Shown: positions 27,215 through 63,726, counted from the stretch's first letter. The stretch: 64,000 nucleotides of DNA from an uncultured Gemmatimonadales bacterium (GCA_963730185.1 CAVSQW010000002.1:32001-96000); one strand, 5' to 3'. Numbers and translations are program-made. Notes: generated by a model from the sequence alone, not told the origin.

Positions 27215-27360
27215 TCGGCGGTCGGCCTCCGGGCCGTCCCTTTTCGCCGTCCGACCGGTCATTTCGTCCGCCTCTGATCGGCACGCCTTGCCGGATCGGG
27301 CGGCCGTGGGCCGGACTTTCCGCTCCCTTTCCGTTCTGCCACGCGAGCCGGCACTCCGGC

Positions 27361-27389
27361 CTCAACTTCGCCGTCCCAACGGCCGATAA
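27361..27389 (+). promoter_or_regulatory. Sigma28-like promoter upstream of the orphan cheA
   Basis: CTCAAC-N15-GCCGATAA, with a consensus sigma28 -10 box. Confidence 0.72.
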
Positions 27390-27490
27390 CACGGCTTGAC
27401 GGAAGTAGTGTCCTCTCCGGGAAGAGTGGGTCGGCCGACCGTCCCCCGCTCGGCATGTTCCCGCGCCGTTCGGACGGTCAAGGGAGTCGG

Positions 27491-29311: not shown

Positions 29312-29353
29312 GGCGGGTCGCCCCGGCCGGCGGGAGATCGCCTGGCTTCGGGA

Positions 29354-47971: not shown

Positions 47972-48967
47972 CTGGCCACCACCCGGTTCACGGTCCTGGC
48001 CGACGAAACCGAGCGCCTCGACCGCTTCCTCGCCGATCAGCTGAGCTTCTCCCGAACCCAGGCCTCGCGGCTCGTGGCCGAGGGGCGGGTCCGGGTCAAC
48101 GACCTCCGGGCCCGGGCCTCGCGGCTGTTGGCGCGGGGTGACACGGTTGACGTCCGGATCGACGACGAGCGTCCGCCGCGGACGCTGGCCCCCCATCCAA
48201 TCCCGCTGAACGTGGTCTACGAAGACGAGTACCTGGCGGTCATCAACAAGCCGGCCGGGCTGGTGGTGCACCCGGCGCCGGGTCATTGGGACGACACCTT
48301 GGTCAACGCCTTGGTGGCCCGGGGGACGTCCCTGTCGGACGGGACCGGCGGCCGGCCGGGGATTGTCCACCGCCTCGATCGCGACACATCGGGGCTGATG
48401 TTGATCGCCAAGACCGACGTCGCCCATCGGAAGCTCGGCGCCGCCATCGCGGCTCGCCGGGTGGAGCGGTGTTATGCGGTGCTGGCCTGGGGGCACCTGC
48501 CGGAGTCGCCCCTCGACGTCAACGCCCCGATCGGCCGCCATTCCTCCGACCGAAAGCGGATGGTGGTGCGGGAGGACGGGCGGACCGCTCGGACCCGGTT
48601 CGAGGTCGTGGCCCGATTTTCGGTGGGGGAGTTGCTTCGGGCCAGGCTGGAGACCGGCCGGACCCACCAGATCCGGGTCCACCTGGCCCACGTGGGCCAC
48701 CCGGTGGTCGGCGACCCCGTGTATGGGGCCGGGGGGGCCCGTCGGATCACCGGGGGGGCCCGGAGTCTGGCGGAACGCCTCGAACGGGCGACGCCCCGCC
48801 AGGCCCTCCACGCGGCCCAGCTCCGGTTCCGCCACCCGATCACGGGGGCGGCCCTGGCCTTCGAGAGCGATTGGCCCGGGGATCTGGCCGAGTCGCTCCG
48901 AATCCTGCAACTTGTTGCAGATCAAGTTGATCCGCCTCATTGGCTGACATATCTTGGGTTCTTCTGA
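47972..48967 (+). CDS. rluD: RluA/RluD family pseudouridine synthase (start uncertain, possibly CTG)
   Basis: S4 domain RLDRFL, INKPAGLVVHP, HRLDRDTSG and GRTHQIRVH. Confidence 0.92.
   Translation: MATTRFTVLADETERLDRFLADQLSFSRTQASRLVAEGRVRVNDLRARASRLLARGDTVDVRIDDERPPRTLAPHPIPLNVVYEDEYLAVINKPAGLVVHPAPGHWDDTLVNALVARGTSLSDGTGGRPGIVHRLDRDTSGLMLIAKTDVAHRKLGAAIAARRVERCYAVLAWGHLPESPLDVNAPIGRHSSDRKRMVVREDGRTARTRFEVVARFSVGELLRARLETGRTHQIRVHLAHVGHPVVGDPVYGAGGARRITGGARSLAERLERATPRQALHAAQLRFRHPITGAALAFESDWPGDLAESLRILQLVADQVDPPHWLTYLGFF
48927..48955 (+). promoter_or_regulatory. Sigma70-like promoter for the che/mgl operon inside the rluD 3' end
   Basis: TTGATC-N17-TATCTT in an AT-rich patch, ending about 20 bp before the cheW ATG. 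Confidence 0.55.
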
Positions 48968-48974
48968 GCGGAGC

Positions 48975-49340
48975 ATGAGCGAGACACCAGCATCCCGGGC
49001 GGTCGTGTGCCAGGCGGGGGGGCAGCGCTTCGCGTTGGCGCTGGAAGACGTGCGCGAAGTTTGCACGGACGTACTGGTGGTCCCGATGCCGGGAGTTGCA
49101 GCTCCGGTCGAGGGTGTCGCGAATGTTCGCGGGACGGTGGTGACCGTGGTGCGCGCCGCCGACCTGCTGGGCGTGACGCCGACCCGATCGGGGCCCTCGC
49201 CGTGGCTGGTCGTTCTCCGATTTCGGGACGGACGAGTGGCCCTCGGCGTCGAGGACATCGAAGATCTGGCGCCGGTCGGGATCGGCTTGAGTCGATTGGC
49301 GGTCGACGCACACCTCGGTCCGCTGTTTGGATCGCGCTAA
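48975..49340 (+). CDS. cheW: CheW-like adaptor (short)
   Basis: FALALEDVREV, PMPG...VEGVANVRGTVVTVV and VALGVEDI. Confidence 0.85.
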   Translation: MSETPASRAVVCQAGGQRFALALEDVREVCTDVLVVPMPGVAAPVEGVANVRGTVVTVVRAADLLGVTPTRSGPSPWLVVLRFRDGRVALGVEDIEDLAPVGIGLSRLAVDAHLGPLFGSR

Positions 49341-49352
49341 CTGGAGGCTCTT

Positions 49353-49715
49353 GTGGGGCACACGGTTCTCGTTTGCGACGACGCGATGTTCATGCGGACT
49401 ATGATCGCCGACATCCTCACCCAAGCCGGGTTCGAGGTGGTGGGCGAAGCGGAGTCGGGTGAGCAGGCGCTCGCCCGGTACCGGGAGCTCAAGCCCGATC
49501 TGGTCACCATGGACATCGTGATGCCCAACATGGGCGGAATCGAGGCCGTCCGGGCCATCTGCAAGGAAGATCCGGAGGCCAAGATTCTGATGTGCAGCGC
49601 GATGGGACAGCAGGCCCTGGTGGTGGAGGCCATCCAGGCCGGCGCCAAGGACTTCGTCGTCAAACCCTTCCAGCCTTCCCGCGTTCTGGAGGCGGTTCAG
49701 CGGCTCCTGGGGTGA
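49353..49715 (+). CDS. cheY: CheY response regulator (Bacillus/Thermotoga type)
   Basis: DDAMFMR, PDLVTMDIVMP, SAMGQQ and AKDFVVKPF. Confidence 0.93.
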   Translation: MGHTVLVCDDAMFMRTMIADILTQAGFEVVGEAESGEQALARYRELKPDLVTMDIVMPNMGGIEAVRAICKEDPEAKILMCSAMGQQALVVEAIQAGAKDFVVKPFQPSRVLEAVQRLLG

Positions 49716-49722
49716 GCCCGCG

Positions 49723-51330
49723 GTGGATCTGAGCCGCTATACCGCCCTCTTCCTCGCTGACACCCGGGAGCATCTCGACCGGGCCAGCCGGATCTTGCTC
49801 GACTGGGAGCGCGAGCCTGGAACGCTCGAGCCGGTGGCCGAGCTGTTCCGGGCGTTCCACTCGGTCAAAGGCTCGGCGGCCACGATGGAGTACACGGCCC
49901 TGGCCGACCTGGCGCATGCCGCCGAGCACCTGCTCGACGCCGTCCGGAAGGGTGACCTCGGGCCGTCGCGGGCGGTGGTGAGCCTGCTGCTTCGAGCGGT
50001 CGACGTGCTGGAGCGGGGCGCGGAGCTGGTGGTGGCCGGCGAAGCGGTGCCGGACGCGCCGGCGCTGGTGGGGGTCCTCGAGCGGATGGTTGCGTCCGGG
50101 GCGCCGCCGGCGCCCGCCGAGCCCCCGCTGGAGCGCCGGACCCCGACCCGCGTCCCCCGGCCCTCGGCCCGCTTTACCCTGTCCGCGGTCCGGGTCGACC
50201 GGAGCCGGCTGGACGAGCTCCTCCACCGGGCGGCCGAGCTGGTGGTGGCGCGGAATCGGCTGGACGGGCTCGTCGCCAGGAGCAGCGACCCCGAGCTCGA
50301 GGCGGTCGCCGGCCAGGTCGGGACCTTGGCCCGGTCGATGCACGCCGGAGTGCTCCGGGCCCGGCTGGCCCCGGTCGCTGAGCTCTTCGACCGGCTGCCC
50401 CGGGTGGCCCGGGACCTGGGGCAGTCGCTCGATCGGGAGGTGGAGCTCAAGCTTCGGAGCGACGGGATCGAGTTGGATCGCGGGATGCTGGAGGAGTTGC
50501 TCGACCCGCTGGTGCACTTGGTGCGGAACGCGGTCGATCACGGCATCGAGCCCCCCGCCGAGCGGCTGCTCGCGGGCAAGCCGCCCGAGGGGCGGCTTCT
50601 CCTCAGCGCCTCGCGGGAGCGGGAGTTCGTCACCGTGCGTCTAGCCGACGACGGACGGGGCATCGACCGCGACGCGGTCGCCCGGCGGGCCGAAGAGGCC
50701 GGACTTCGGCCGGCCGGCCGGCCGCCGCCCGACGACCACGAGCTCCTCGGGCTGCTGGCTCGGCCCGGGTTCACGCTCCGGCACGAGGTCACCTCGATCT
50801 CGGGACGTGGCGTCGGGATGGACGTGGTGCTGAGCACCGTGCGCAGCCTGGGCGGCCAGGTCGAGGTGAGCTCGGAGCCCGGACAGGGCACCACCTTCAC
50901 GCTGACCCTGCCGCTCACCACCGCGATTCAGCGGGTGCTCCTGGTGGGGGCGGCTGGCGAGCGGTACGCGATCCCCTTTCGGATCGTGGCCGAAGCGGTG
51001 CGGGGGCCCGGGCCGGCGGCGACCGAAACGACCGGGGGGCGGTTTAGCTTTCGGGATCGCTCGTTGCCGATGGTGGACCTGGCCCGCGCGACCGGGCTGA
51101 AGGGAGCGACGGCCGGGCGGGTGCGTCCGATGCTGGTGCTCGAATGGGGGACCCGGCAGGGCGCGCTGGCGGTCGACGCCGTGCTGGGGCAGCTGGACGT
51201 GGTGATCGAGCGGGTGGAGGCGCCGGTCGGCCTGCCCGCCTGGGTGAGCGGTGCGACCATTCTTGCCGACGGGTCGCCCGCACTGGTGCTGGATCCAACC
51301 GCCCTGTTCCAGGCGGAGGCCTCGCGATGA
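49723..51330 (+). CDS. cheA: Chemotaxis histidine kinase CheA (no P2 domain)
   Basis: FRAFHSVKG, PLVHLVRNAVDHGIE, SGRGVGMDVV and a C-terminal CheW domain. 535 aa. Confidence 0.92.
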   Translation: MDLSRYTALFLADTREHLDRASRILLDWEREPGTLEPVAELFRAFHSVKGSAATMEYTALADLAHAAEHLLDAVRKGDLGPSRAVVSLLLRAVDVLERGAELVVAGEAVPDAPALVGVLERMVASGAPPAPAEPPLERRTPTRVPRPSARFTLSAVRVDRSRLDELLHRAAELVVARNRLDGLVARSSDPELEAVAGQVGTLARSMHAGVLRARLAPVAELFDRLPRVARDLGQSLDREVELKLRSDGIELDRGMLEELLDPLVHLVRNAVDHGIEPPAERLLAGKPPEGRLLLSASREREFVTVRLADDGRGIDRDAVARRAEEAGLRPAGRPPPDDHELLGLLARPGFTLRHEVTSISGRGVGMDVVLSTVRSLGGQVEVSSEPGQGTTFTLTLPLTTAIQRVLLVGAAGERYAIPFRIVAEAVRGPGPAATETTGGRFSFRDRSLPMVDLARATGLKGATAGRVRPMLVLEWGTRQGALAVDAVLGQLDVVIERVEAPVGLPAWVSGATILADGSPALVLDPTALFQAEASR

Positions 51331-51950
51331 TGGATGCTTCGAAGCTGACCGACGTGGAGCGCGACGCGCTGCGCGAGATCGCCAACATCGGGGCCGGGCA
51401 CGCGGCCACGGCCCTGTCGCAGATGACGGGTCGCCGGATCATGATCGACGTGCCCGAGGTCTCGGTCAAGCGGCTGGAGGAGGCCAGCGATCTGATCGGT
51501 CCGCCCGACACGATCATCGCCGCCGTGCTGATGCACATGATGGGCGACATGACCGGCCGCACCCTCCTGGTCCTGCCCGAGGGGAGCGCCCGCGCCCTCT
51601 GCGCCATCCTGCTCCGCAACGCGGCCCAGGACGGTCCCGGGTTCACCGACATGCAGCGCTCCACCGTGATGGAGACCGGCAACATCCTCTGCAGCGCGTA
51701 CCTCAACGCGCTCTCCGACTTCATGGGGATGATGCTGCTCCCGTCGGTGCCGGCCCTGGTGGTCGATCAAGCCGGCGCCGTGCTCACCACGGCCTATCTC
51801 AACTTCGGCCACGCCCGCGATCACGTGATCTGCGTCGAGACCTCGTTCCGGATCGACGGCTCGCCCGAGCAGCTGAGCGGCCAGTTCATCCTGATGCCGG
51901 ACGTCGCGTCGTTGGCGGCGATCTTCGACGCGATCCGTCTCCCCCGGTAG
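51327..51950 (+). CDS. cheC: CheY-P phosphatase CheC
   Basis: Two ExxN motifs: DALREIANIGAGHAATALS and ETGNIL. Confidence 0.92.
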   Translation: MMDASKLTDVERDALREIANIGAGHAATALSQMTGRRIMIDVPEVSVKRLEEASDLIGPPDTIIAAVLMHMMGDMTGRTLLVLPEGSARALCAILLRNAAQDGPGFTDMQRSTVMETGNILCSAYLNALSDFMGMMLLPSVPALVVDQAGAVLTTAYLNFGHARDHVICVETSFRIDGSPEQLSGQFILMPDVASLAAIFDAIRLPR

Positions 51951-51954
51951 GCGG

Positions 51955-54627
51955 ATGACGGGGTCCGGGTCGTCGGAGCGGGAGCTCGGTGTCCTGCGCT
52001 CCCTCGCGCGGCGGATCGATCCGTCGGACCCGGGCGCGCACAACAACCTCGGGGTGCTCTACTACGAGCGCGGGATGGTGCCCGAGGCGATCGCCGCGTT
52101 CGCCCGGGCGCTCGAGCTCGATCCGCACATGCGGGTGGCCCAGGACAACCTCGAGGCCGTCCAGCGCGAGACCGGCTTCTACGACCGCCGGATCCACGAG
52201 CTTCGAGAGCAGGTGCTCCGCCAGCCGTCCGACCGCCAGCTGAAGCTCGAGCTCGGCCGGGCCTATCTCGCCCTGGGGCAGTTCGACCGGGCGGCCGAGC
52301 AGTTCGAGGATCTGCTCAAGGGGCACCCCAACGACGGTACCGCCCTGGTGCAGCTTGGTCTGGTCGAGCACGCGCGGGGCCGCCAGGAGACCGCCACCGG
52401 CTGGTTCGAGCGGGCCTGCGAGGTGGATCCCAAGAGCACCGTCGCCCGGCTCTACCTCGGCCAGGCCCTCTACAACCGGGGCCTGGTGGACGCCGCCCTC
52501 GCGGTGCTGAGCGAGGCCGCCGCCCTCAATCCCGACCACGCCGACGTCCAGTACCTGCTCGGCTTCGTGTACGGCGACCTCGGGTATCACGACGCCGCCC
52601 GCGCCGCCACCCGCCGGGCCATCGGGCTCAATCCGTCGCTGGGGACCGCGCAGACCAACCTCCGGATCGGGGGCCGGCCGAACCCGTCGGCCCCCGACCC
52701 GCCTCGGGCCCCGGTTCGGGTCGACCAGTCGGGCGGCGAAGCCCATCTCCACCTGGCCGAAGCGTTTCGGCGGCGCGGGTATCTGGTCGAGGCTCTCCGG
52801 GAGTACCGGCTGGCGCACGAGAGCGGGGAAGACCCCCGGGCCGCGCTCGAGGGCATGGCCGAGATCTATCTCCTCAAGCGGGAGACCCGGAACGCCCTGG
52901 AGCTCTACGACCGGCTGCTGGCCGAGGCGCCCGACGCGGCCAAGCTCTGGACCGAGCGCGGGGTGGTCCTCCACCAGGCCGGCCGCCGGGACGAGGCCCG
53001 GGCGGCCTACGATCGGGCCCTCGAGGCCGACCCGGGTTACGCGCTGGCCTGGAACGACCTCGGCGTGCTCCGGGCCGGCGACTCCGACCCCGGCCCGGCC
53101 GCCGAGGCGTTCGAGGCCGCCTTGGGCCGGCGCCCCGACTTCGTGGCCGCCCGGCTCAACCTCGCCCTCCTCCACTTCCAGCGGCAGCGGCTCCAGCTCG
53201 CCCTGGAGGGCTACCGGGCGGTGCTGGCCGAGGAGGCCGAGCACCCGGTGGCCTGGAATGGGGTCGGCCTGGTCCTGATGGAGCTCAAGCGCTACGCCGA
53301 TGCCCGGAACGCCTTCGGGCGGGCGGTCGAGGCCGACCCCGACTCCGCCGCGGCCCACTACAACCTCGGGTTCGCCCTGAGCCAGCTCGGCGCCTTCGAC
53401 GACGCCCTCCGCGAGACCCGCCGCGCCCTGGAGCTCGATCCGTTCTACGTACCCCAGAAGTTCGCCCTCTCGATCGAGCTCCAGCTCACCGAGTCGCTCC
53501 TCCCGATCGCTCCCTCGCTGGTGGGCGACGTGGCCGCCGACGCCGCGGCCGAGGACTTCAGCTTCGACCCCGCCGCCCTCGACGAGCTATTCGTCGAGCT
53601 GGCGCCCGGCGAGTCGGCCGCGCCGGTGGCACCGGTCGATCCCTACTCCCTGGTCCGCGACCTGGTCGGGAAGGGGCTCCTGGAGTCGGCCACGGCGGAG
53701 GTGCACCGGGTGCTCCGGCGGGGGGGGCCGGCCGGTCCGGGGATCGCGCTGCTCGGGACGATCTTCGCCAAGCGGGGCCTTCACGGCGAAGCCCTGGAAC
53801 GGTTCCGCGAAGCCCGCCGTGAGTCGCCCGACGATGCCGGTATCCTCCTCGGCGAAGCGACCTCGCTCCTCGCCCTGGGCCGCTCCCGCGAGGCGGCCGA
53901 GACCGCCGACGAGCTGGTCCGGCGCCGCCCCGACGACGCCGAGGCCCTGGTGGTTCGGGCCCGGGCCCGGCTGGCCGAGGGCGATCTAGGCGGCGCCCAG
54001 GACGACGCGCTCGGCGCCCTCGCGGCGGCGCCGGGCCGGGCCGACCTGCTGGTGCTTCGGGGCGTGGTCGCCCGGCGCCTCAACGACCCCGAGGAGGCGC
54101 TCGATGCGTTCCGGGGGGCGGTCGACCTGGAGCCCGACCTGGTCCAGGCCTGGTACGAGATCGGGATGGTGGAGGAGGAGCGCCGTGATCCGGCCGCGGC
54201 CCGCGCGGCCTACGAACGCGCCCTCGCCATCCTGCCGACCTATCTCGAAGCGGGGTTGGCCCTGGCCGAACTGCATCGCCGGCAGGGGCGCACCGGGGAC
54301 GCGGTCCGGCTGCTGGTCGACCTCCTCCTGGTGGAGCCCTACGCCTTCGACGCGCTCCTCCTGCTGGGTCGCACGCTGGCCGACGAACGCCGCCACCAAG
54401 ATGCCGTGGTGGCCTTCAACCGGGTCCTCCAGTTCTTGCCCGAGCACACGGTCGCCCGCTTCTATCGGGGCGTGTCGCTCAACGCCCTCGGGCGGTTCGA
54501 CCTGGCTCTGGCCGATTGGGATGAGACGCTCCGGCTCGCCCCGACCGGTCCGCTCGCGGCGGCCGCCCGGGCCCAGGCCCGCTCCACCCGGGACCTCCTC
54601 CACATCCTGCAACCGGTGGAGGTGTAG
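51955..54627 (+). CDS. Large tetratricopeptide repeat protein (890 aa)
   Basis: Repeated TPR consensus segments (AHNNLGVLY...ALELDP, AWNDLGVL, AWNGVGLVL, AHYNLGFAL). No signal peptide. Confidence 0.9.
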   Translation: MTGSGSSERELGVLRSLARRIDPSDPGAHNNLGVLYYERGMVPEAIAAFARALELDPHMRVAQDNLEAVQRETGFYDRRIHELREQVLRQPSDRQLKLELGRAYLALGQFDRAAEQFEDLLKGHPNDGTALVQLGLVEHARGRQETATGWFERACEVDPKSTVARLYLGQALYNRGLVDAALAVLSEAAALNPDHADVQYLLGFVYGDLGYHDAARAATRRAIGLNPSLGTAQTNLRIGGRPNPSAPDPPRAPVRVDQSGGEAHLHLAEAFRRRGYLVEALREYRLAHESGEDPRAALEGMAEIYLLKRETRNALELYDRLLAEAPDAAKLWTERGVVLHQAGRRDEARAAYDRALEADPGYALAWNDLGVLRAGDSDPGPAAEAFEAALGRRPDFVAARLNLALLHFQRQRLQLALEGYRAVLAEEAEHPVAWNGVGLVLMELKRYADARNAFGRAVEADPDSAAAHYNLGFALSQLGAFDDALRETRRALELDPFYVPQKFALSIELQLTESLLPIAPSLVGDVAADAAAEDFSFDPAALDELFVELAPGESAAPVAPVDPYSLVRDLVGKGLLESATAEVHRVLRRGGPAGPGIALLGTIFAKRGLHGEALERFREARRESPDDAGILLGEATSLLALGRSREAAETADELVRRRPDDAEALVVRARARLAEGDLGGAQDDALGALAAAPGRADLLVLRGVVARRLNDPEEALDAFRGAVDLEPDLVQAWYEIGMVEEERRDPAAARAAYERALAILPTYLEAGLALAELHRRQGRTGDAVRLLVDLLLVEPYAFDALLLLGRTLADERRHQDAVVAFNRVLQFLPEHTVARFYRGVSLNALGRFDLALADWDETLRLAPTGPLAAAARAQARSTRDLLHILQPVEV

Positions 54628-55779
54628 GTGGCGATCCAGGGTCCGCTCCGCGAGCTCGGCATCCACGACGTCTTCCAGCTCCTCGATCTGGGCCGGAAGA
54701 CCGGGTTGCTCCGGATCGTGTCCGAACTCCGCCAGAACGAGGGCACGATCTGGTTCCACGAGGCCGCGGTGGTCGGCGCCACCATCCGCTCCAACCCGCA
54801 TCTGCTGGGGCAGCAGCTGCTTCGGGCGGGCAAGGTCCGGAACGAGGACCTGGCCCGGGCTGAGGCGCTCAAGGACGGCGGCGACGGCCGCCGGATCGGC
54901 GAGATGCTGGTGTCGTTCGGCGCGATCACCGCGCGGGAGCTCGCCACCCAGGTCCGGCTCCAGATCGAGGAGGTCGTGTTCACCCTGCTCGGGTGGTCGG
55001 AGGGCCACTTCATCTTCGAGGAGCGGAGCGCCGACGCCATCCCGCGCGAGGCCGACGTCCGGATCTCGGTCGAGTCGCTCCTGCTCGAGGCGGCCCGCCG
55101 GATCGACGAGTGGTCCCGGATCCGCACCCGGATCCCGCACCTCGGCGTGATTCCCCGGCTGGCGCCCTCCCAACAGGAGGAGGCCGGCTCGTTGGTGTTG
55201 ACGCCGTTCGAATGGCGGGTGCTGGCGGCGTCCGACGGCGTGCGCGACGTCCAGGCCCTCGCCGTCACCATGAGCGAGCCGGAGTTCGACGTGGCTCGGG
55301 CCATCTTCGGGCTGGCTTCCGCCGGGGTGGTGATCGTCCGCGACCCGGTGGAGGAGTCGGCGGCGGCGGCCCCGCGGGAGGACGCTGGGCCCCTGTTGGC
55401 GGAAGCCGAGCGGTTGGTGAAGGCCGGGAACTTCGAGGCGGCCCGGAGCATGGCGAGCGCCGCCTTCGACGCCTTCCCGAACGACCCCCGTCCGTATCTT
55501 TTGGTAGGACGAACGTTGATCGCTGAGCAGCGCTTCGACGAGGCGGAAGCGCCGCTTCGGGAGGCGGTCCGGCTCGATCCGGCGTCACCTCGGGCCCTGC
55601 GGCTGCTCTCCTGGTCGCTGCTTGGCACCGGTCGCCTCGGCGAAGCGGTGCACGGATTCGAGGCCTGGCTGGCGCTCCCGTCGCTCGGCCCCGAGGAGGA
55701 ACGGCGGGTCGCGTCGGTCGGCGCGGCCATTCCGGCGGCCCGGCAGTTGGCCGCGTTGCTCAGAGGCTCGCATGACTGA
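54628..55779 (+). CDS. DUF4388 (PATAN-like) + MshEN-like + TPR protein
   Basis: IQGPLRELGIHDVFQLL...KTG, LLGQQLLRAG...RIGEMLVSFG, LLLEAARRIDE and a C-terminal TPR region. Confidence 0.82.
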   Translation: MAIQGPLRELGIHDVFQLLDLGRKTGLLRIVSELRQNEGTIWFHEAAVVGATIRSNPHLLGQQLLRAGKVRNEDLARAEALKDGGDGRRIGEMLVSFGAITARELATQVRLQIEEVVFTLLGWSEGHFIFEERSADAIPREADVRISVESLLLEAARRIDEWSRIRTRIPHLGVIPRLAPSQQEEAGSLVLTPFEWRVLAASDGVRDVQALAVTMSEPEFDVARAIFGLASAGVVIVRDPVEESAAAAPREDAGPLLAEAERLVKAGNFEAARSMASAAFDAFPNDPRPYLLVGRTLIAEQRFDEAEAPLREAVRLDPASPRALRLLSWSLLGTGRLGEAVHGFEAWLALPSLGPEEERRVASVGAAIPAARQLAALLRGSHD

Positions 55780-56563
55780 CGACATCGCGACGATGACCGT
55801 GCAGCTGGCGCAGGATCCGACCAGCCTGGTGTTTCTGCCGCTGGCCGAGGCGCTCCGCGGCCGGGGACAGCTGGACGCCGCCCTCACGGTCGCCCTCCGT
55901 GGCCTGAGCCGCTATCCCGAGGTGGCCGACGCCTACGACTTGGTCGCTCGGATCCAGTGCGATCGGGGCGACGGCGACGCCGCCTTCGATGCCTGGACCA
56001 ATGTGCTCCGCCTCGCGCCCGACCATCTGGGCGCGCACAAGGGGCTCGCCTTTCTCTTCTACCGCGGCGGCGAGGTCACCCGGAGTCTCCGCCACCTGAC
56101 CCGGGCGCTCGAGATCGCGCCCGGCGACGCCAGCCTCACCGCCGCGGTCGACCGGATTCGGATCCAGGCCGAGGCCGGCCTCGAGCGGCCCAGCGTGCCG
56201 GACCAGGCGGCGCCGCAGGCGGTCCGCCGGGGGGGCGACCAGGCCACCCTGCTGTTCGATCAGCAGGGGCGGGTGCTCCGGGGCGACGTGGTGCGGCCCG
56301 ACGGCAGCGACGCCAGCGAGGCCGTCGCCGCAGGCCTGGCCGGCGTGAGTCGGGAGGCCGAGCGCACCGCCCGGATGCTCGGCCTGGGCGAATGGCGGGC
56401 CATCGCGGTCGAGGGCGGGCCGGTCAACTACGAGATTCGGAGCCCGTCCGAGGAGACCCTCCTGCTCCTGATGCGGGGGCGCGAGGTGCCGGCCGGTCGG
56501 CTGTCGCGGATCGCCGATCGCGCCGTCGCTGACTCGGTGCGCTGGCTGGAGGAACTGGAATGA
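55772..56563 (+). CDS. TPR + Roadblock/LC7-like fusion protein
   Basis: QDPTSLVFLPLAEALR followed by TPRs. The C-terminal LLFDQQGRVL...AAGLAG...LGLGEWRAIAVEG pattern is Roadblock-like. Confidence 0.72.
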   Translation: MTDDIATMTVQLAQDPTSLVFLPLAEALRGRGQLDAALTVALRGLSRYPEVADAYDLVARIQCDRGDGDAAFDAWTNVLRLAPDHLGAHKGLAFLFYRGGEVTRSLRHLTRALEIAPGDASLTAAVDRIRIQAEAGLERPSVPDQAAPQAVRRGGDQATLLFDQQGRVLRGDVVRPDGSDASEAVAAGLAGVSREAERTARMLGLGEWRAIAVEGGPVNYEIRSPSEETLLLLMRGREVPAGRLSRIADRAVADSVRWLEELE

Positions 56564-56910
56564 CCTTTCCCGAACAGGCGGTCCTCGATGAGGTCACCCG
56601 GCTGCCGGGAGTCCGGAGCGCGCTCCTGGTCGGGCTCGAGGACGGGATCGTGGTGGCCGAGACCGCGCTCGAGGGAGAGGACACCCGGGCGGCGGCGGCC
56701 CTGGCGGCCCGGCTGGCCCAGCGCCTGGCCGAGCTGCCTCGAACGGTCGGCCATCCCGCCCTCACCATGATCCTGCTTCAGGGCTCGGAGGGACAGCTCT
56801 TCGCTGCCCCGGGTGGCGACGGCTTGCTGCTGGTCGCGGTGGCGGACAACGACGTGAACATCGGCGAGGTGCGGCTCGCCCTGCTCGACGCCGCGGGGCG
56901 GCTCAGCTGA
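56560..56910 (+). CDS. Roadblock/LC7 domain protein (MglB/MglC-like)
   Basis: LPGVRSALLVGLEDGIVV...AAAL...VNIGEVRL. 116 aa. Confidence 0.85.
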   Translation: MTFPEQAVLDEVTRLPGVRSALLVGLEDGIVVAETALEGEDTRAAAALAARLAQRLAELPRTVGHPALTMILLQGSEGQLFAAPGGDGLLLVAVADNDVNIGEVRLALLDAAGRLS

Positions 56911-57371
56911 TGCGAGCCATCGAGCCCTGGGTCGAACGGCCGCTGGCGGGCTTCGTGGAGGAGTCCGGGGCGCGGATCGCGGTCCTGATGACCGGAGCGG
57001 GCCAGGTGGTGGCCCAACACGGCTTCACCCGGTCGCTCGACCTGATGTCGGCCGCGGCGCTCGGCGCCGGCATCGTGGCGTCGACCCGCGAGATGGCTCG
57101 CGAACTGGGTTCGGACGGGTTCGGAGCGATCGTTCACCAGGGCCAGCAGCTGGGCGTGTTTCTCGCCCCGTTCGATCTCCCCGCCGCGTCGTGGATCGGC
57201 CTGGTCGTGTTCGGGCCGGAGACCTCACTCGGGCTGGTGCAGCTCTTCTTCGATCAGATGGTGGACGGGCTGACCCGGGCGGCGCCGCGCGAGGCGCCCG
57301 CGCGCCAGGTCTTGCCCGAGGCCTTCGAAGACGAGCTGAACGCCAGCCTGCGCGCCCTCTTTGGACGGTGA
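56910..57371 (+). CDS. mglB: MglB-type GAP (Roadblock/LC7)
   Basis: AVLMTGAGQVV...AAALGAG...HQG...VFGPETSLGLVQL resembles Myxococcus MglB. Directly upstream of mglA. Confidence 0.8.
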   Translation: MRAIEPWVERPLAGFVEESGARIAVLMTGAGQVVAQHGFTRSLDLMSAAALGAGIVASTREMARELGSDGFGAIVHQGQQLGVFLAPFDLPAASWIGLVVFGPETSLGLVQLFFDQMVDGLTRAAPREAPARQVLPEAFEDELNASLRALFGR

Positions 57372-57374
57372 CCC

Positions 57375-57977
57375 ATGCCGCTCGTCAACTTCACCGCCCG
57401 CGAAATCACCTGCAAGCTGGTCTACTACGGACCGGGCCGCTGCGGCAAGACGACCAATCTCCAGTACATTCATGGCCGGGTGCCGGAGCACCGCCGGGGT
57501 CGGATGGTCTCGCTGGCCACCCAGTCCGATCGCACCCTCTTCTTCGACTTCCTGCCCCTCGAGCTGGGGGTGATCTCCGGGTTCACCACCCGATTCCAGC
57601 TCTACACCGTGCCGGGTCAGGTCTACTACAACGCCACCCGCCGGCTGGTGCTCCAGGGCGCCGACGGGGTGGTGTTCGTGGTCGACAGCCAGGCCCGCCG
57701 GTTCGACGACAACATCGAGAGCTTCCAGAACCTGCAGGAGAATTTCCTGGATCAGGGGGTCGACATCCGCCAGGTGCCGCTGGTGCTCCAGTACAACAAG
57801 CAGGACCTGCCCGCCGATCTCGTCCTCGGTCCCTCCGATCTCGACGAGACCTTCAACTTCCGCTCCGTTCCCAGCCTGCCGGCCGACGCCCTGCACGGCA
57901 CCGGCGTGTTCGAGACGCTCAAGGCGCTGTCCACGCTCGTCCTGCAACGGCTCGCCGCGCGGCCGCCGACGCTGTGA
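57375..57977 (+). CDS. mglA: MglA small Ras-like GTPase
   Basis: REITCKLVYYGPGRCGKTTNLQYI, DRTLFFDFLP, LYTVPGQVYY and QYNKQD. Confidence 0.95.
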   Translation: MPLVNFTAREITCKLVYYGPGRCGKTTNLQYIHGRVPEHRRGRMVSLATQSDRTLFFDFLPLELGVISGFTTRFQLYTVPGQVYYNATRRLVLQGADGVVFVVDSQARRFDDNIESFQNLQENFLDQGVDIRQVPLVLQYNKQDLPADLVLGPSDLDETFNFRSVPSLPADALHGTGVFETLKALSTLVLQRLAARPPTL

Positions 57978-59950
57978 CGGACCCGTTCGCTTTGTTCGTC
58001 ACCGATCCGGCCAATGCGGCGGCGGTGGCAGCGGCCCGGACGGTCGCCGATGCGAGCCGTACCCTCTACGGCCCCCTGGTGATGGTGGGAATCCGGGGCG
58101 CCGGGAAGTCGCATCTTCTCCGCGCCGTGCGTGACCGGGCCGCCGCCCAGTCGCCCCCCCGGCGGGCGGAGCTCATCTCGCTCCTTCGGCTCGCCGACGT
58201 GGTGCACGCCCGCGGCTTGGGCGAGGGGGGATCGGCGCTTCGCGACCGGCTGCTCGACGCCGACCTGCTGCTGATCGACGATTTCGAGGCGGTGACCCGC
58301 CATCTGCCGGTGCAGGCCTTCGTCTTCGACCTTCTCGAATCGCGGATCACCAAGGGCCGCGAGGTCGTGGTCGCGAGCGCCCTGCCGGTCGCCGGGCTGG
58401 CCGGTCTCGACGCCCGGCTTCGCCGCCGGCTCGAGGCAGGCACCGTCGTCACGCTCGGGCTTCCCGGCTCCGACGCCAGGCAGGTGATCCTGGACCGGCG
58501 GGTGGCCGAAAGCGGCGTTCGCCTTGCGCCGGCGGTGGTCGAGGCCCTGGCCCACCAGCCGTTCCGGTCGATCAAGGAATACCTGGGCGCGCTCCAGCGG
58601 GTCCTCGCCTTCCAGCAAACGACGCCCGAAGCGCTCTCGGCGGCCGACGCGCTGGCGTTGCTCGGCCTCGAGAGCACCAACGGGCGCCTCGGTCCGGCCG
58701 AGGCCGGACCAGCCCCCGCCGCTGCCGACGCACCCCAGGAGCCGCCCAGCCTCGAGGAAGCGGAGTTCGACGCCTTCCTCTCCGAGGTCGTGGCCAACGT
58801 TTCGCATCAGTTCGACCGGTGGCGGGGCCGGATTCGCGAAGCCATCGCCCACTGGCAGTCGCGGGGCCTCCGGGCCCGTCGGCTGGAGCGGGCCCTGACC
58901 GACGAGATGGGCGGCGACCCGGAGCCGGTGATCAGCGACTTCGGCCGCGACGCCACCGAGCTGGAGCGGCTGGTGGCCGAGGTTCGAGCCATCGCGCCCG
59001 ACCTGGCCGGCGCCGAGGTCCTCCGTGATCCCGATCAGCTCCCGGCCGCCCGCGAGCTGGTGGACGAGGCCCGGCGCCGGCGGGCCCCGCTGTCGGCCCC
59101 GTTGCCGGAGCTCACCCTCGACACCCTCGGCGTGGGCCCCTCCAACCGGCTGGCCGTCGAGGCGGCCCGCGCCCGGGTGGCCGACGCCGGCGGGCAGGAC
59201 AACCCCCTGGTCGTGGTCGGGGCCAGCGGGTTGGGCAAGACCCATCTGCTCCACGGGATCGGTAACGCGCTGATCGAGCGACAGGTCTCACCCATCGCTT
59301 GCCTGAGCGCCCACAGCTTCCTGGGCGAAGTCTCCGCCCTCCGGACCGCGGAGGAGACCGCCGCCTGGCGGACCCGCTATCAGTGGGTGGCCGGCCTCCT
59401 GGTCGACGATCTTCACGTGCTCGCCCACGAGGGCCGCGCCCAGGAGGAGCTGCTCCAGATCTTCGGGGCGCTCGCCGACGGCGGCCGCCCCCTGGTCTTC
59501 GCGTCGGCCCGCCGGCTGAGCGAGCTCGAGGGCTTCGATCCCCGGCTCCTGACCCGGCTCGAGGCGGGCCTGGTGGTGGAGATCCTCCCGCCCGATCGAG
59601 AGGTGCGCCTGACCGTCGTCAAGGCGCTGCTGGCCGGCACTCCCATGGCCGACGACGCCGCGCTGATCGACTACCTCGCCGGCCGCCCGGCCGACTCCAT
59701 CCGGGCGGTGCAGGGGGCGGTGCATCGAGTGCTCGGTGAAGCGCGGGGCCAGCGGGTCACGCCCTCGCCCGCGCTGGCCCGCGAGGTGCTCGAGGTGGTC
59801 TTGTCCAAGGGCACCCGGCCGGGCCGGCGGAGCGCGACCCCGCGAGGGAGCGGGATCCTCTCGCCCGGGATGGGGGTGGTCCGAAGCCGGGAGAAGATGA
59901 TTCAGCGCTGGCCGCACCCGGCCGAGCGGCTGATGGTGGAGCTGCGCTGA
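57974..59950 (+). CDS. Protein with two tandem DnaA/Hda-type AAA+ domains, lacking DnaA domains I and IV
   Basis: Domain 1: FALFVTDPANAAA...GIRGAGKSHLL...LLLIDD...RLRRRLEAG. Domain 2: VGPSNRLA...NPLVVVGASGLGKTHLL...LLVDD...QEEL...RLLTRLEAG. The GTG start overlaps the mglA stop. Confidence 0.85.
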   Translation: MTDPFALFVTDPANAAAVAAARTVADASRTLYGPLVMVGIRGAGKSHLLRAVRDRAAAQSPPRRAELISLLRLADVVHARGLGEGGSALRDRLLDADLLLIDDFEAVTRHLPVQAFVFDLLESRITKGREVVVASALPVAGLAGLDARLRRRLEAGTVVTLGLPGSDARQVILDRRVAESGVRLAPAVVEALAHQPFRSIKEYLGALQRVLAFQQTTPEALSAADALALLGLESTNGRLGPAEAGPAPAAADAPQEPPSLEEAEFDAFLSEVVANVSHQFDRWRGRIREAIAHWQSRGLRARRLERALTDEMGGDPEPVISDFGRDATELERLVAEVRAIAPDLAGAEVLRDPDQLPAARELVDEARRRRAPLSAPLPELTLDTLGVGPSNRLAVEAARARVADAGGQDNPLVVVGASGLGKTHLLHGIGNALIERQVSPIACLSAHSFLGEVSALRTAEETAAWRTRYQWVAGLLVDDLHVLAHEGRAQEELLQIFGALADGGRPLVFASARRLSELEGFDPRLLTRLEAGLVVEILPPDREVRLTVVKALLAGTPMADDAALIDYLAGRPADSIRAVQGAVHRVLGEARGQRVTPSPALAREVLEVVLSKGTRPGRRSATPRGSGILSPGMGVVRSREKMIQRWPHPAERLMVELR

Positions 59951-61566
59951 TGGCGATCAAGGGCAGCCTCAAGGAGGCCAGCCTCCCCGACGTGATCCAG
60001 CTGCTCTTCTTCGGGCGGCGGACGGGGTGTCTGGCGCTGGCCGATCGGCAGCGCTTCGGCTCGATCTTCTTCGAGGACGGCTGGATCGCCTACGCGACGA
60101 TCGTGAACCGGCGCGATCGGCTGGGCGACATCCTGCTCCGGGCCGGGACCATCAGCCGGGAGCAGCTCGACCAGGCCCTCGCCATGCAACAGGTCTCGCG
60201 GGGCCGGCGTTTGGGCGAGATCCTGGTCAGCCTGGGCGCCCTGGCGCCGGAAGAGCTCCGCCGGCTGCTCCGCTTTCAGATCGAGGAAGCGGTCTACGCG
60301 CTCTTCTCCTGGTCGACCGGCACCTTCACCTTCGATGCCGGCGTGCGCCCCGAATGGGAGGGCGATCTCGACCGGATCAACCCCGAAAACCTGTTGCTCG
60401 AGGGTGCCCGCCGGGTGGACGAGTGGAGCCTGATCGAGAAGAAGATTCCGTCGTTCGACGCCGTCTTCTCCGTCGACCGGGGCGCGCTGGCCAACCCCGC
60501 GCTCAGCTTCACCGAGGCGCAGCGCCGGATCCTGCCGCTGCTCGACGGCGAGCGCGACACCCGCGAGGTCATCGACGCCTCCGGCCTCTCCGATTTCGAG
60601 GCCGCGCAGGCGCTGTTCGGGCTGATCACCGCGGGGCTGGCCCAGCGGACCGGAACCTCGTCCAAGGCGGCGCCGTCGCGGCTGCTCGAGGCCCAGCTCG
60701 ACGAGCACCGAAACCTGGGCGTGGCGTTCCTCCGAAGCGACATGCTCGACGAGGCCTCCCGCGAGTTCCGCCGGGTCATGGAGCTGCGGCCGTCCGAAGG
60801 AACCTCGCCATTCTATCTGGGCGTCATCGCCGCCCGCCAGGACAACTGGCCCGACGCCGTCACCCTCTTCCGGCAGGCGCTCGACCGGAGCGGCCCCCGC
60901 GGCGCGATCCTTCACAACCTGGCCGTGGCCCTCGAGGCGATCGGCCGGACCGACCAGGCCGACGCCATCGGCGCCGAGGCCGCGAGCCGGCTGCCGGACG
61001 ACCCCAGGATCTTCCTCGACTGGGGGATCCTGGCTCTCGAGCGCGACGAGCCCCAGGTGGCCTGGGCCCGGCTGGATCGCGCCCGCGAGCTCTTCGGAGT
61101 GGCGGCCCCGCCGATCTGGTTCTGGGCTGCCGCGCTGACCCAGGTGGCCCTCGACCAGATCGAATCCGCCGTGAGCCTGGCGCGCGAAGGCGTCACGGCC
61201 TTTCCTCAGCACAGCGTGCTCCGGAACAACTACGCCGTCCTGCTCGAGGCCACCGGTGCCTTTACCGAGGCGCAGGTCCTCCTCGAGGAGATCATCGGCG
61301 ACGAGCCGTCGCAGCCCCAGCCGTTCAAGAACCTGGGCGATCTCTACTACCGGGGCGGCCGCTACGAGGACGCCGCCCGGGTTTACGAGCGGGCGGCCAC
61401 GATCGCCCCCGAGCTGGGCGACGATCTCTTCTTCAAACTCGGGAACCTCGCCTTCCGGGGGCGGGAAGCGTCCCGGGCCCGCGAGTTCTGGGAGCGGGCC
61501 CTGGCGCTCAACCCGGGGCACCAGCTGGCCCGGGCCAACCTCGAGCTCTTGCCGGTGTCCGCATGA
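59950..61566 (+). CDS. DUF4388 (PATAN-like) + MshEN + TPR protein
   Basis: IKGSLKEASLPDVIQLL, RLGDILLRAGTISREQLDQALAMQ...RLGEILVSLG, LLLEGARRVDE and many TPRs. Confidence 0.85.
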   Translation: MAIKGSLKEASLPDVIQLLFFGRRTGCLALADRQRFGSIFFEDGWIAYATIVNRRDRLGDILLRAGTISREQLDQALAMQQVSRGRRLGEILVSLGALAPEELRRLLRFQIEEAVYALFSWSTGTFTFDAGVRPEWEGDLDRINPENLLLEGARRVDEWSLIEKKIPSFDAVFSVDRGALANPALSFTEAQRRILPLLDGERDTREVIDASGLSDFEAAQALFGLITAGLAQRTGTSSKAAPSRLLEAQLDEHRNLGVAFLRSDMLDEASREFRRVMELRPSEGTSPFYLGVIAARQDNWPDAVTLFRQALDRSGPRGAILHNLAVALEAIGRTDQADAIGAEAASRLPDDPRIFLDWGILALERDEPQVAWARLDRARELFGVAAPPIWFWAAALTQVALDQIESAVSLAREGVTAFPQHSVLRNNYAVLLEATGAFTEAQVLLEEIIGDEPSQPQPFKNLGDLYYRGGRYEDAARVYERAATIAPELGDDLFFKLGNLAFRGREASRAREFWERALALNPGHQLARANLELLPVSA

Positions 61567-62366
61567 GCCTCGTCGACCATCCCGCCTTCGGTCGGGTGAC
61601 CGAGCACCTCGAGCGGCTGGGCGCCGGGGCGTTCGTGCTGTACAAGACGCCCTGCCTGGAGCGGCGGCTCGCCTCCCGGATCCGGGCCCGCCGCCAGCAC
61701 GGCCTGGCCGAGTACGCCGCCCTGCTCGACAGCGATGCCGGTGAGCGCGACCGGCTGGTGAGGGCGCTCTCGATCGGCGTCACCAGCTTCTTCCGGAATC
61801 CGACGGCGTGGCGCCGGCTCGCCGAGCTGCTCGAGGAGCGGAAGCCGGCGGGCGGGCTCCGAGGCTGGAGCGCCGGCTGCGCGAGCGGCGAGGAGGCCTG
61901 GTCGCTGGCCATGGTCCTCTCCGATCGGGCCCTCACCGGGTCAGGCGACCCGACCGCCTTCCGGGTCGACGCCACCGATCTCGACCTGGCCGGGCTGGCC
62001 CTCGGTCGGATGGGCGAGTATCCCGGGCAGGTAACCGCGCCCCTTCGGCTGGCCGGCGACCTTCGCCACGGTCGGCTGGTGGGTGACCGGTTCCTGGTGG
62101 AGCCGGCGCTCCGGGGGCGAGTCCACTTCCGCCGAGACGATCTCACCGAGTCGCGGGTGCGCGGGCCGTACGACGTGGTCACCTGCCGGAACGTGCTCAT
62201 CTACTTTGGCGACGAGGGGCAGTCGCGGGCCTTGGCCGCGCTGGTTCGCTCCCTCGCGCCGGGCGGCCTCCTGATGCTCGGCCGGGCCGAGCTCGCCGCC
62301 CGATCGGTTGCCGAGGAGCTGGAGATCGTCGACTCGCGGGAACGGATCTACCGGAGGGTCGAATGA
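61563..62366 (+). CDS. cheR: Protein-glutamate O-methyltransferase CheR
   Basis: VTSFFRNP, WSAGCASGEE, ATDLD, CRNVLIYF and LAPGGLLMLG. Confidence 0.92.
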   Translation: MSLVDHPAFGRVTEHLERLGAGAFVLYKTPCLERRLASRIRARRQHGLAEYAALLDSDAGERDRLVRALSIGVTSFFRNPTAWRRLAELLEERKPAGGLRGWSAGCASGEEAWSLAMVLSDRALTGSGDPTAFRVDATDLDLAGLALGRMGEYPGQVTAPLRLAGDLRHGRLVGDRFLVEPALRGRVHFRRDDLTESRVRGPYDVVTCRNVLIYFGDEGQSRALAALVRSLAPGGLLMLGRAELAARSVAEELEIVDSRERIYRRVE

Positions 62367-62851
62367 CGGGGCTCCGGGTCGTCGTCCGGGTGAGCGGCCT
62401 GATCGTGGCCGAGGCGCCGGCGACGCTCGTGGCGCTCGCCCTCGGGAGCTGCGTCGCGATCGCCCTCTACGATCCCCAGGCCAAGATCGGCGGCATGGCC
62501 CACGTGCTCCTGCCCTCGGCGGCGATGGGACGGGACCAGGGACAACCTGGCCGCTTCGCCCAGACCGCGGTGCCCACCCTCCTGGAACGGCTGATTGCCC
62601 GGGGTGCGCGGGCGCCGGCCATCACCGCCCGGCTGGTCGGCGGGGCCAGCATGTTCACCTCGCTGGCCCCTCCGGGCACCATCCAAATGGGCGACCGGAA
62701 CGTGGTGGCGGCCCGCGAGGCGCTCCACCGCAACGGCATCCGCCTGGTCGGTGAAGCGGTCGGCGGCGACTTCGGCCGGACGGCCGAGTTCGACGTGGAG
62801 ACCGGCCGGATCCGGGTCGCCTCGTACCTCCGCGGCGAGCAGCTGCTGTGA
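62363..62851 (+). CDS. cheD: Chemoreceptor glutamine deamidase CheD
   Basis: LGSCVAIALYD, GGMAHVLLP, GGASMF and GDRNV. Confidence 0.93.
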   Translation: MTGLRVVVRVSGLIVAEAPATLVALALGSCVAIALYDPQAKIGGMAHVLLPSAAMGRDQGQPGRFAQTAVPTLLERLIARGARAPAITARLVGGASMFTSLAPPGTIQMGDRNVVAAREALHRNGIRLVGEAVGGDFGRTAEFDVETGRIRVASYLRGEQLL

Positions 62852-63726
62852 CCGACGTCCGACGGACGGCCTGGCTGGCCGCGCTGGTCGAGGAGCTCGA
62901 CGCGATCGACCGCGAGCTCGAGGCTGGCGCCGCCGATCGGGCTCGTCTCAAGACCCGGATCGTCGCCACCTTCCGCCAAGTGGAGGGGAGCCTGTCGGAG
63001 CTCGGCGGCCTCAAGGACCGGATCAAAGGGCAGGTGGACCGCTTCAAGCAGCTCGCCACCAGCGGCCCCGGCCACCCCGACCCGGCCGAGGCGGGGCCGA
63101 TGCCGGTGCGGGCCGACCACCTCGGCGCCTCGACCTTCATCGAGAAGGGCTGGAGCCTGATCTCGGCGGGCGACCCCGCTGGTGCGATCGACGCGCTCCA
63201 CCGAGCGCTCGAGCTCGCCCCCGACGACGTCCACGCGAAGGCCCTCGTTGGATGGGCCCAGATGCTCGGGGAGCACTATGACGACGCCCTGGTGACCTTC
63301 TCCGAGGTGCTGGCCCGCGAGCCCGCCCACGCGCTGGCCCGGGTGAACGTGGGCTTCATCTGCCTCAAGAAGCGAATCTTCGGCGAGGCGATCGAGCACC
63401 TCTCCCGGGTCATCCGGCTCGACAACGACCGGAAGGCCACGCTGTACGCCCACTACTATCTGGGACTCGTCTACCTCGAGCGGGCGATGTACCTCGACGC
63501 CGAGACCTTTCTCACCAAGGCCATCGCGCTGGGGCCGAATCTGATCGAGGCGTACTACGACTTGGGGCGGGCCCGCTGGTTCGCGGGCGATCAGGAAGGG
63601 GCCCGCGCCACCTGGCGCAAAGGGGCCAAGGCCAACAAATATGCTCCGTGGGCCAAGCGTTGCCAGGAACTCCTCGAAGCCGTCGAGCGCGGCGAGTCGG
63701 TGCCGCCCTCCTCGCCGGCGGCCTGA
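62848..63726 (+). CDS. Coiled-coil + TPR protein
   Basis: N-terminal heptad helix followed by TPRs (AHYYLGLVY, AYYDLGRA). Confidence 0.82.
   Translation: MTDVRRTAWLAALVEELDAIDRELEAGAADRARLKTRIVATFRQVEGSLSELGGLKDRIKGQVDRFKQLATSGPGHPDPAEAGPMPVRADHLGASTFIEKGWSLISAGDPAGAIDALHRALELAPDDVHAKALVGWAQMLGEHYDDALVTFSEVLAREPAHALARVNVGFICLKKRIFGEAIEHLSRVIRLDNDRKATLYAHYYLGLVYLERAMYLDAETFLTKAIALGPNLIEAYYDLGRARWFAGDQEGARATWRKGAKANKYAPWAKRCQELLEAVERGESVPPSSPAA

Follow-up and report, generated by a model that had tools for sequence, protein, structure and literature searches.

Here we describe a protein of 658 amino acids (aa) that carries two copies of the ATPase core of DnaA, domain III, in tandem, and that is encoded at positions 57974..59950 of a 64,000-nucleotide stretch of DNA from an uncultured Gemmatimonadales bacterium (GCA_963730185.1 CAVSQW010000002.1:32001-96000), which at its full length we call the window. 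In the family to which the protein belongs, the ATPase core of DnaA has genuinely been put to another use, which is conserved and has not been described before, and its role is very probably non-replicative. Its best-supported partner is the protein encoded directly after it, which combines a DUF4388 (PATAN) domain with tetratricopeptide repeats (TPRs), and the small GTPase MglA is a possible second partner. For the whole chain that we propose, an ATP switch tethered by its C-terminal tail that clusters an effector of motility or polarity, we estimate a probability of roughly one half.

The domain content of the protein was read from profiles and from a structure model. Pfam returned two stretches of Bac_DnaA (E 2e-53) and, at E<=0.01, no match to Bac_DnaA_C (domain IV) or DnaA_N (domain I), and the first module begins at residue 5. 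The AlphaFold2 model shows two AAA+ folds with a mean per-residue confidence (pLDDT) of 89 within the domains, and its best fold matches are the DnaA structures 8BTG, 8BV3, 3R8F and 2Z4R, ranked among matches to the tandem-AAA proteins p97 and Rix7. Module 1 is followed by a floppy spacer (residues 238-261) and by the middle domain (260-369), which is helical; after module 2 come another floppy stretch (614-643) and the short tail. Two modules of the domain III type, with neither domain I nor domain IV, had been proposed in a first-pass annotation of the window made from the sequence alone, and this layout is confirmed; the acidic linker described there does join the modules but is an ordered domain and not only a spacer, and the conserved C-terminal tail had been overlooked. 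The features of the gene are as follows.

57974..59950, plus strand: tandem DnaA-domain-III gene, 658 aa (open reading frame, Pfam, structure model)
57986..58645, plus strand: AAA+ module 1, residues 5-224, a long branch in this genus (profile scores, residues, tree)
58088-58111, plus strand: Walker A of module 1
58685..58756, plus strand: Pro/Ala-rich spacer of low confidence, residues 238-261 (structure model)
58760..58810, plus strand: helix A, with the acidic amphipathic motif EFxxFLxEV (retained by every mini-protein, see below)
58811..59095, plus strand: one copy of a helical repeat of ~95 aa, WxxEGY ... DP (homology to Thermoplasmata repeat arrays)
59105..59809, plus strand: AAA+ module 2, residues 378-612, shortened or absent in some relatives (profile scores, residues)
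59219-59242, plus strand: Walker A of module 2
59879..59947, plus strand: C-terminal tail EKxxxxWPxxxxRxxxE (conservation, complex model of a homologous mini-protein tail)

For both halves of the protein the DnaA model gives a better score than the Hda model does (118.5 versus 65.9 bits and 165.9 versus 60.4 bits), and the whole protein lies below both the DnaA and the Hda cut-offs, with a TIGR00362 score of 279.9 against a cut-off of 343.9. By such membership tests on its sequence, the window protein is neither DnaA nor Hda. It shares with DnaA domain III (8BV3/8BTG of B. subtilis, 2Z4R of T. maritima, 1L8Q/3R8F of A. aeolicus) the fold, at a root-mean-square deviation of 2-3 A and ~30% identity, as well as Walker A and B, the box VII arginine, the arginine finger and, mostly, sensor II. 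Unlike DnaA, the family has two modules per chain, lacks domains I and IV, adds helix A, the repeat and the tail, and sits in a che/mgl operon; nor does the window gene lie beside dnaN, the dnaN-linked copy being another gene, a separate canonical dnaA that adjoins dnaN on contig C9 of the same genome, where the first-pass annotation had expected one somewhere. Hda and HdaA are likewise DnaA-type AAA+ proteins without domains I and IV and with an arginine finger, but the family is tandem, has a predicted tether to the PATAN-TPR protein, and misses the Hda cut-off by a wide margin, with scores that are lower than those against the DnaA model. The absence of an Hda-type clamp-binding motif, also noticed in that annotation, held across the family: a regular expression that finds QLSLP in E. 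coli Hda matched 0/62 and 0/57 family N-termini.

Residue roles in DnaA domain III were taken from the accessible part of PMC5742627, and residues were tallied in 117 N-modules, 114 C-modules and 100 DnaA sequences, many of whose rows are close kin. The Walker A lysine is present in 114/117 N-modules and 113/114 C-modules, the first aspartate of Walker B in 115/117 and 113/114, the box VII arginine in 103/117 and 110/114, the arginine finger in 93/117 and 106/114, and the sensor II arginine in 82/117 (with lysine in 30 more) and 102/114. The family has largely lost two other residues: the sensor I aspartate, invariant in the DnaA set, is found in 58/117 N-modules and 14/114 C-modules, and the ELEG glutamate, present in 99/100 of the DnaA sequences, is absent from the common residues of both kinds of module. 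The H and B positions that contact single-stranded DNA, together with AID-1, are lost in module 1, as are R227, V211 and R245, and partly retained in module 2, which keeps R227 in 71/114 and R245 in 96/114. Since the Walker motifs, the box VII arginine and the arginine finger are conserved and the H and B motifs are lost or only partly kept, nucleotide binding and head-to-tail contact of the modules look preserved and the DNA functions do not, and the loss of the sensor I aspartate suggests a looser binding of the nucleotide. In the window protein, both modules keep Walker B, the box VII arginine and the arginine finger and have alanine in place of the sensor I aspartate; module 2 also keeps sensor II, where module 1 has lysine. 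Walker A, Walker B and box VII, which the first-pass annotation had called intact, are so, as is the arginine finger.

The evidence for a partner begins with the gene that follows. The stop codon of the 658-aa frame shares one base with the ATG of the DUF4388-TPR gene (TGATG), this gene stands directly downstream in 40/40 ATPase-bearing loci with sequence there (42 were examined, and two reach a contig end), and a stop/start overlap precedes it in 37/46 loci, counted by eye without a check of the frame in each row. At the other end, the frame starts with GTG and overlaps the mglA stop by four bases (GTGA), in line with the translational coupling to mglA claimed in the first-pass annotation; the coupling to the downstream gene is at least as tight. 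The two flanking genes and the parts of the partner that matter here are listed next.

57375..57977, plus strand: small GTPase of the MglA family, with one further paralogue in the genome (Arf/Ras/GTP_EFTU matches, roadblock neighbours)
59950..61566, plus strand: DUF4388 (PATAN) protein with TPRs, the best-supported partner (Pfam, complex model, conservation)
~60112-60279, plus strand: alpha-clip/MshEN-like insert in the DUF4388-TPR protein (motifs)
~60799-61341, plus strand: predicted TPR groove in the DUF4388-TPR protein (complex model of a relative)

A complex was modelled between a natural 60-aa relative, L385, from a genome without this mglA, and its cognate DUF4388-TPR partner of 438 aa. 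The pair reached an interface score (ipSAE) of 0.83 in three runs, against 0.01 for the best of 3 controls, with at least 86% of contacts shared between runs and a partner pLDDT of at least 73; the mark set for this score is reached by 116/157 solved and 2/215 mismatched pairs, a calibration only roughly valid with our own alignments. In the model, residues 32-60, the tail of the small protein, lie along the TPR groove (231-414), with helix A outside the interface. Interface columns of the TPR region are better conserved than the other columns (0.61 versus 0.52, p=0.008; polar columns, 0.65 versus 0.44), and the window partner retains the groove residues N323, N426, N427, Q457 and N461; a C-terminal peptide held by conserved asparagines of a TPR groove is thus found by prediction, for the relative only. 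On this modelling it is likely that the tail of the family lies in the TPR groove of the DUF4388-TPR protein.

A stand-alone paralogue with another N-terminal domain keeps a similar tail without an overlapping gene, which argues that the tail is under selection as protein. This paralogue (L488:5363-7360; P0260, P0244) consists of the N-terminal domain, helix A, the repeat and the tail, with a weak iron-hydrogenase-like match in the N-terminal domain of P0244, and it is a candidate second ligand for this TPR groove.

Homologues that bear taxon names belong to the Gemmatimonadota, bacteria widespread in soil and water, and the family is near-universal in the Gemmatimonadales; domains I and IV gave no Pfam match in any of the 120 homologues listed, and many family records nevertheless carry the automatic annotation 'chromosomal replication initiation ATPase DnaA'. 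Among 150 genomes drawn from the phylum, whose families we label f1-f12, a match was found in 73/74 genomes of f1, 21/31 of f2, 2/2 of f3, 1/1 of f4, 1/1 of f5 and 2/2 of f8, and in 0/16 genomes of f9-f12. In f6 and f7 only G143 was counted as real, the other matches (E ~1e-61 to 1e-66, half of the profile covered) being read as canonical DnaA. The unpublished genomes G085, G124 and G399 count in these tallies (f8 includes G124) and in those of the MglA paralogues, of canonical dnaA and of the mini-gene search in f2 (below), and their loci L253 and L375 were excluded from the analyses. A canonical dnaA with domain IV is present in 61/61 genomes of the phylum searched, in two copies in one of them. 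A change of W288 to G (RFEGGL) was rejected as a mark of the family because it also turns up in DnaA loci, from Corynebacterium among others, that look canonical, and a scan of genome contigs with a single-protein pattern gave no match. One metagenome-assembled genome labelled Acidimicrobiia has the same operon (L033) and may be misbinned.

The gene order that is widely kept reads cheW-cheY-cheA-cheC-TPR-DUF4388/TPR-TPR/roadblock-roadblock-roadblock-mglA-[tandem gene]-DUF4388/TPR-cheR-cheD-TPR. Most genomes with the family gene have two MglA paralogues, of which the one in the operon is its upstream neighbour. In L029, L030, L128 and L129 (the last two from genus g24), the operon MglA is 39-46% identical and cheR and cheD are missing, with the tandem gene and its tail conserved.

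Natural deletions form a series that begins with two ATPase modules, passes through forms with one and ends with none. One module lacks its lid in L104, L107-L113 and L117, only module 1 remains in L105, L106 and L126, and at the far end a small open reading frame at the same place encodes helix A and the tail only, as first seen in three genomes without a family match. In L123 (G153), a stop or frameshift breaks the tandem gene after module 1 in the assembly. A search of family f2 for such mini-genes found them in 26/301 genomes and five genera; with one unpublished genome excluded and L127 added, 26 loci, found by similarity or inspection, entered the comparison. Their products of 60-80 aa consist of an acidic helix and the C-terminal tail, helix A being retained in all of them, and F11, W48 and E57 are invariant among the 22 that were aligned. 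In each of the 26, the DUF4388-TPR gene comes directly after the mini-gene; mglA stands before the mini-gene in 18 and is missing there in 8, and in six the order is cheC-mini-DUF4388, the entire roadblock/mglA block being gone. A tree of the partner with its insert removed nests the minis in f2 among ATPase-bearing forms, in two well-supported groups whose union has a support of 39, which indicates that the minis are derived.

We propose that the protein serves the PATAN-TPR protein of the following gene as a regulatory subunit and has no part in replication. As genomics and prediction suggest, translation of the two would be coupled, and the C-terminal tail would lie in the TPR groove of the partner as a tether. 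The modules would then bind ATP, and, to judge by the conserved residues, the arginine finger and the box VII arginine would make DnaA-like head-to-tail contacts without DNA, so that a nucleotide-dependent assembly might cluster or release the tethered PATAN protein. By analogy, PATAN would pass the output to a machine for motility or polarity, of which the type IV pilus motor is the likeliest candidate, and the Che proteins and the MglA/roadblock switch would supply the inputs. The tether would be the core of the system, and the ATPase modules a removable regulatory layer. The pilus motor is proposed because, in the accessible part of a preprint on Synechocystis (bioRxiv 10.1101/2021.06.11.447907), PATAN binds PilB1 and PilC, an output to the pilus motor. 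Compared with cyanobacterial regulators of the PatA type, as far as they are covered there, PATAN has TPRs here in place of the receiver domain, and a dedicated predicted tail ligand. The operon also resembles the Group 1 MglA/MglB modules of PMC4316618, whose accessible part describes clusters of MglA, roadblock, PATAN and TPR genes and MglA with PATAN neighbours; the word 'DnaA' does not occur in its main text. A literature search that covered few subscription papers and no supplements (such as the gene-neighbourhood table S2 of PMC4316618) found no paper on the family.

Several points weigh against this proposal. The complex was modelled with a 60-aa relative from another genome and not with the window protein, whose own partner matches only 19/43 of the modelled partner's interface residues (and 30% of the residues elsewhere). 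Solved structures include many TPR-peptide complexes, and likeness to them may contribute to the score of L385. In most relatives the next gene has its GAGGAG ribosome-binding site in the EE codons of the tail, so the conservation of EE is not independent evidence for the tail; its W-P, EK and R positions have no such explanation. At a predicted TM score (pTM) of 0.52, the model is not confident in the arrangement of the two modules, their oligomerisation and hydrolysis are proposals only, and the minis may have one or two origins and so reflect few deletion events. As for the output, pilus-type ATPases occur in the genome alongside a full flagellar cluster (window 1-26 kb), and with that cluster in the window and cheC and cheD in the operon, the flagellum is a real alternative. 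Finally, mglA lies directly upstream in 41/42 ATPase-bearing loci for which wide flanks were available, a linkage on which the first-pass annotation had made its claim depend and that is seen in 18/26 mini loci.

This linkage is the first argument for a bridge to MglA, in which the modules, the repeat or helix A would bind MglA as effector, GTPase-activating protein (GAP) or guanine nucleotide exchange factor (GEF), with the tail holding the PATAN-TPR protein. Such a bridge is compatible with the tail tether and is a narrowed form of the idea that MglA is the partner. Apart from G143, mglA is gone from the locus only in lineages that had already lost the ATPase modules, and helix A, itself conserved, takes no part in the modelled interface; the acidic amphipathic helix of Myxococcus MglB reportedly acts on MglA. 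Helix A persists, however, in 8 loci without mglA; a genome search found only the other MglA paralogue in G080, G099 and G101; genus g24 has a tail 53-70% identical beside an MglA of only 39-46%; and G143 keeps a two-module gene without adjoining mglA. We consider the bridge unlikely, if worth keeping in view. MglA as the partner, as first annotated, is correspondingly weakened: the gene stays beside DUF4388-TPR where mglA is absent (8/26 mini and 1/42 ATPase-bearing loci), and it is there that the modelled tail docks.

The modules might also be tethered nucleotide sensors, which would report ATP/ADP energy status as monomers or within the molecule and act allosterically on the partner without forming oligomers. 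The scarcity of the sensor I aspartate and the loss of the ELEG glutamate point this way, as do lid-less forms without sensor II, which persist in several genera, and the fact that the partner has no alpha-clip insert in 24/26 mini loci, which suggests that the ATPase part acts on the insert. We nevertheless judge such a sensor rather improbable, for the box VII arginine and the arginine finger, which act in trans, are highly conserved and would be needless in a monomer, except where one module complements the other in cis.

A link to replication, by co-assembly with DnaA or by Hda-like stimulation of its ATP hydrolysis, would tie motility to the cell cycle and draws on modules nearer to DnaA than to Hda, on the DnaA-DnaA interface arginines that are kept and on the R227 and R245 often retained in module 2, but it is very improbable given the lack of a clamp motif, the loss of R227, V211 and R245 in module 1, the deletion of both modules in lineages that keep dnaA, and nearest architectures that are found in archaea and in pilus-related fusions. 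The suggestion in the first-pass annotation that replication is linked to polarity thus finds little support in a protein without clamp motif or DNA-binding domain whose modules have gone from whole lineages; its other suggestion, an initiator-clade ATPase reused for signalling or scaffolding, is supported. To our knowledge, the lone DnaA-clade ATPase proteins that have been characterised (Hda, DnaC, IstB) all act on DNA transactions.

Phylogeny was assessed with quick trees, and in the second of these the N-modules form one group (99) and the C-modules another (100), neither nested in Gemmatimonadota DnaA. The search for Hda gave only near-identical enterobacterial copies, so that E. coli Hda alone entered a tree, where it and DnaC are long, unplaceable branches. 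The free quick tree did not resolve the non-canonical modules (Gemmatimonadota, Thermoplasmata, MshEN fusions) as one clade against canonical DnaA. Constraining N- and C-modules to stand together gave a better likelihood than the free tree (approximately unbiased test, p-AU 0.94), and constraining all 48 non-canonical modules together was 50 log units better (p-AU 0.96), which means that the free search was suboptimal. A single origin of the non-canonical modules is by these trees not rejected, and not shown.

The middle domain leads to more distant relatives. A profile of residues 260-374 run over 1.84 billion representatives gave 482 matches at E<=0.001, and the best 150 of these include giant multi-repeat proteins, the named ones from Thermoplasmata, other archaea and one Ca. 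Wallbacteria. Many of the giants have ~8 repeats, one DnaA domain III without domain IV, and then zinc ribbons. The repeat and the middle domain align in hhalign at 98.1% (E 7.6e-14; helical control 0.1%). A reverse profile from 40 repeats of the giants ranks the tandem gene first of 43,757 frames in its own genome, weakly (E 0.16), and scores up to 43.5 bits on relatives, with its best match in the middle region in all 61 of 62 that matched; the ESM Atlas gave no usable match for the middle domain. In the Thermoplasmata arrays (L265, L335, L259, one of them on a 3.58-Mb chromosome; P0130 family), the same repeat immediately precedes a DnaA domain III that lacks domain IV. They differ in having ~8 repeats and not 1, a single module, an intact sensor I and, in the loci read, stand-alone genes, and neither helix A nor the tail was found in these uncharacterised repeat-array proteins, which are annotated 'DnaA' as well. 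P0122 and P0132, the latter from Ca. Wallbacteria, exceed 3,000 aa and have 22-25 matches to the helical repeat; P0122 has no Pfam match. P0150 looks frameshifted and was not used. A PATAN-like nature of the Thermoplasmata N-terminal domain is not claimed, with DUF2226 below the cut-off in 1/2 (E 0.0055) and hhalign at 1% against DUF4388.

Other DnaA modules without domain IV are fused to DUF835, to MshEN and, in an archaeal pilin operon, to a pilus ATPase; the fusions to MshEN and the pilus ATPase were counted in favour of our proposal. In P0285-P0298, of ~1,900 aa, MshEN is followed by two DnaA modules with a long helical region between them, and in a Thermoplasmata pilin operon (L282:3722-11975) the pilus assembly ATPase carries a DnaA domain III at its N-terminus. 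An apparent fusion to DUF4388, P0307, was set aside as a single record without a contig whose join lies inside a shared short motif and which may be an artefact.

The rest of the operon in the window is laid out as follows.

48954..51950, plus strand: cheW, cheY, cheA, cheC (Pfam)
51955..55779, plus strand: 890-aa TPR protein and first DUF4388-TPR protein (Pfam)
55772..57371, plus strand: TPR-roadblock gene and two roadblock/LC7 (MglB-like) genes (Pfam)
61563..63726, plus strand: cheR, cheD and a 292-aa TPR protein (Pfam)

We take 57375..57977 to be mglA partly on its motifs, beside the Arf/Ras/GTP_EFTU matches and the roadblock neighbours, and two RLGxxLxxxG motifs in the insert of the DUF4388-TPR protein (60112-60279) resemble the c-di-GMP-binding motif of MshEN. 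Elsewhere in the window, a complete-looking flagellar cluster (fliI to flgK, fliM/N, flhAB, flhF, fliA) with motAB occupies 354-26233 on the minus strand, a receiver-HD protein lies at 23354-24547, and 26348-30316 encode an HDOD protein, a second CheA and a receiver-GGDEF diguanylate cyclase. On another contig of the genome (G000:C14:58411-59561), a gene for a T2SSE-family ATPase is seemingly split into several frames, beside an intact T2SSE gene.

Taken more widely, we tentatively suggest that the DNA-free DnaA core may be an unnamed class of nucleotide switch for the control of surface filaments and polarity in bacteria and archaea, acting through DnaA-like ATP filaments that would cluster motor regulators; it would be tethered by a tail in the Gemmatimonadota, preceded by arrays of the helical repeat or fused to DUF835 or a pilus ATPase in the Thermoplasmata, and fused to MshEN elsewhere. 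The 'DnaA' labels on records of the family and of the repeat arrays mislead surveys of DnaA, those of archaea included. The natural 60-aa mini-protein and the predicted tail-TPR interface make a direct and cheap test system. If the proposal is true, a signalling DnaA core would widen the range of this ATPase clade and add an ATP switch to the MglA/PATAN modules.

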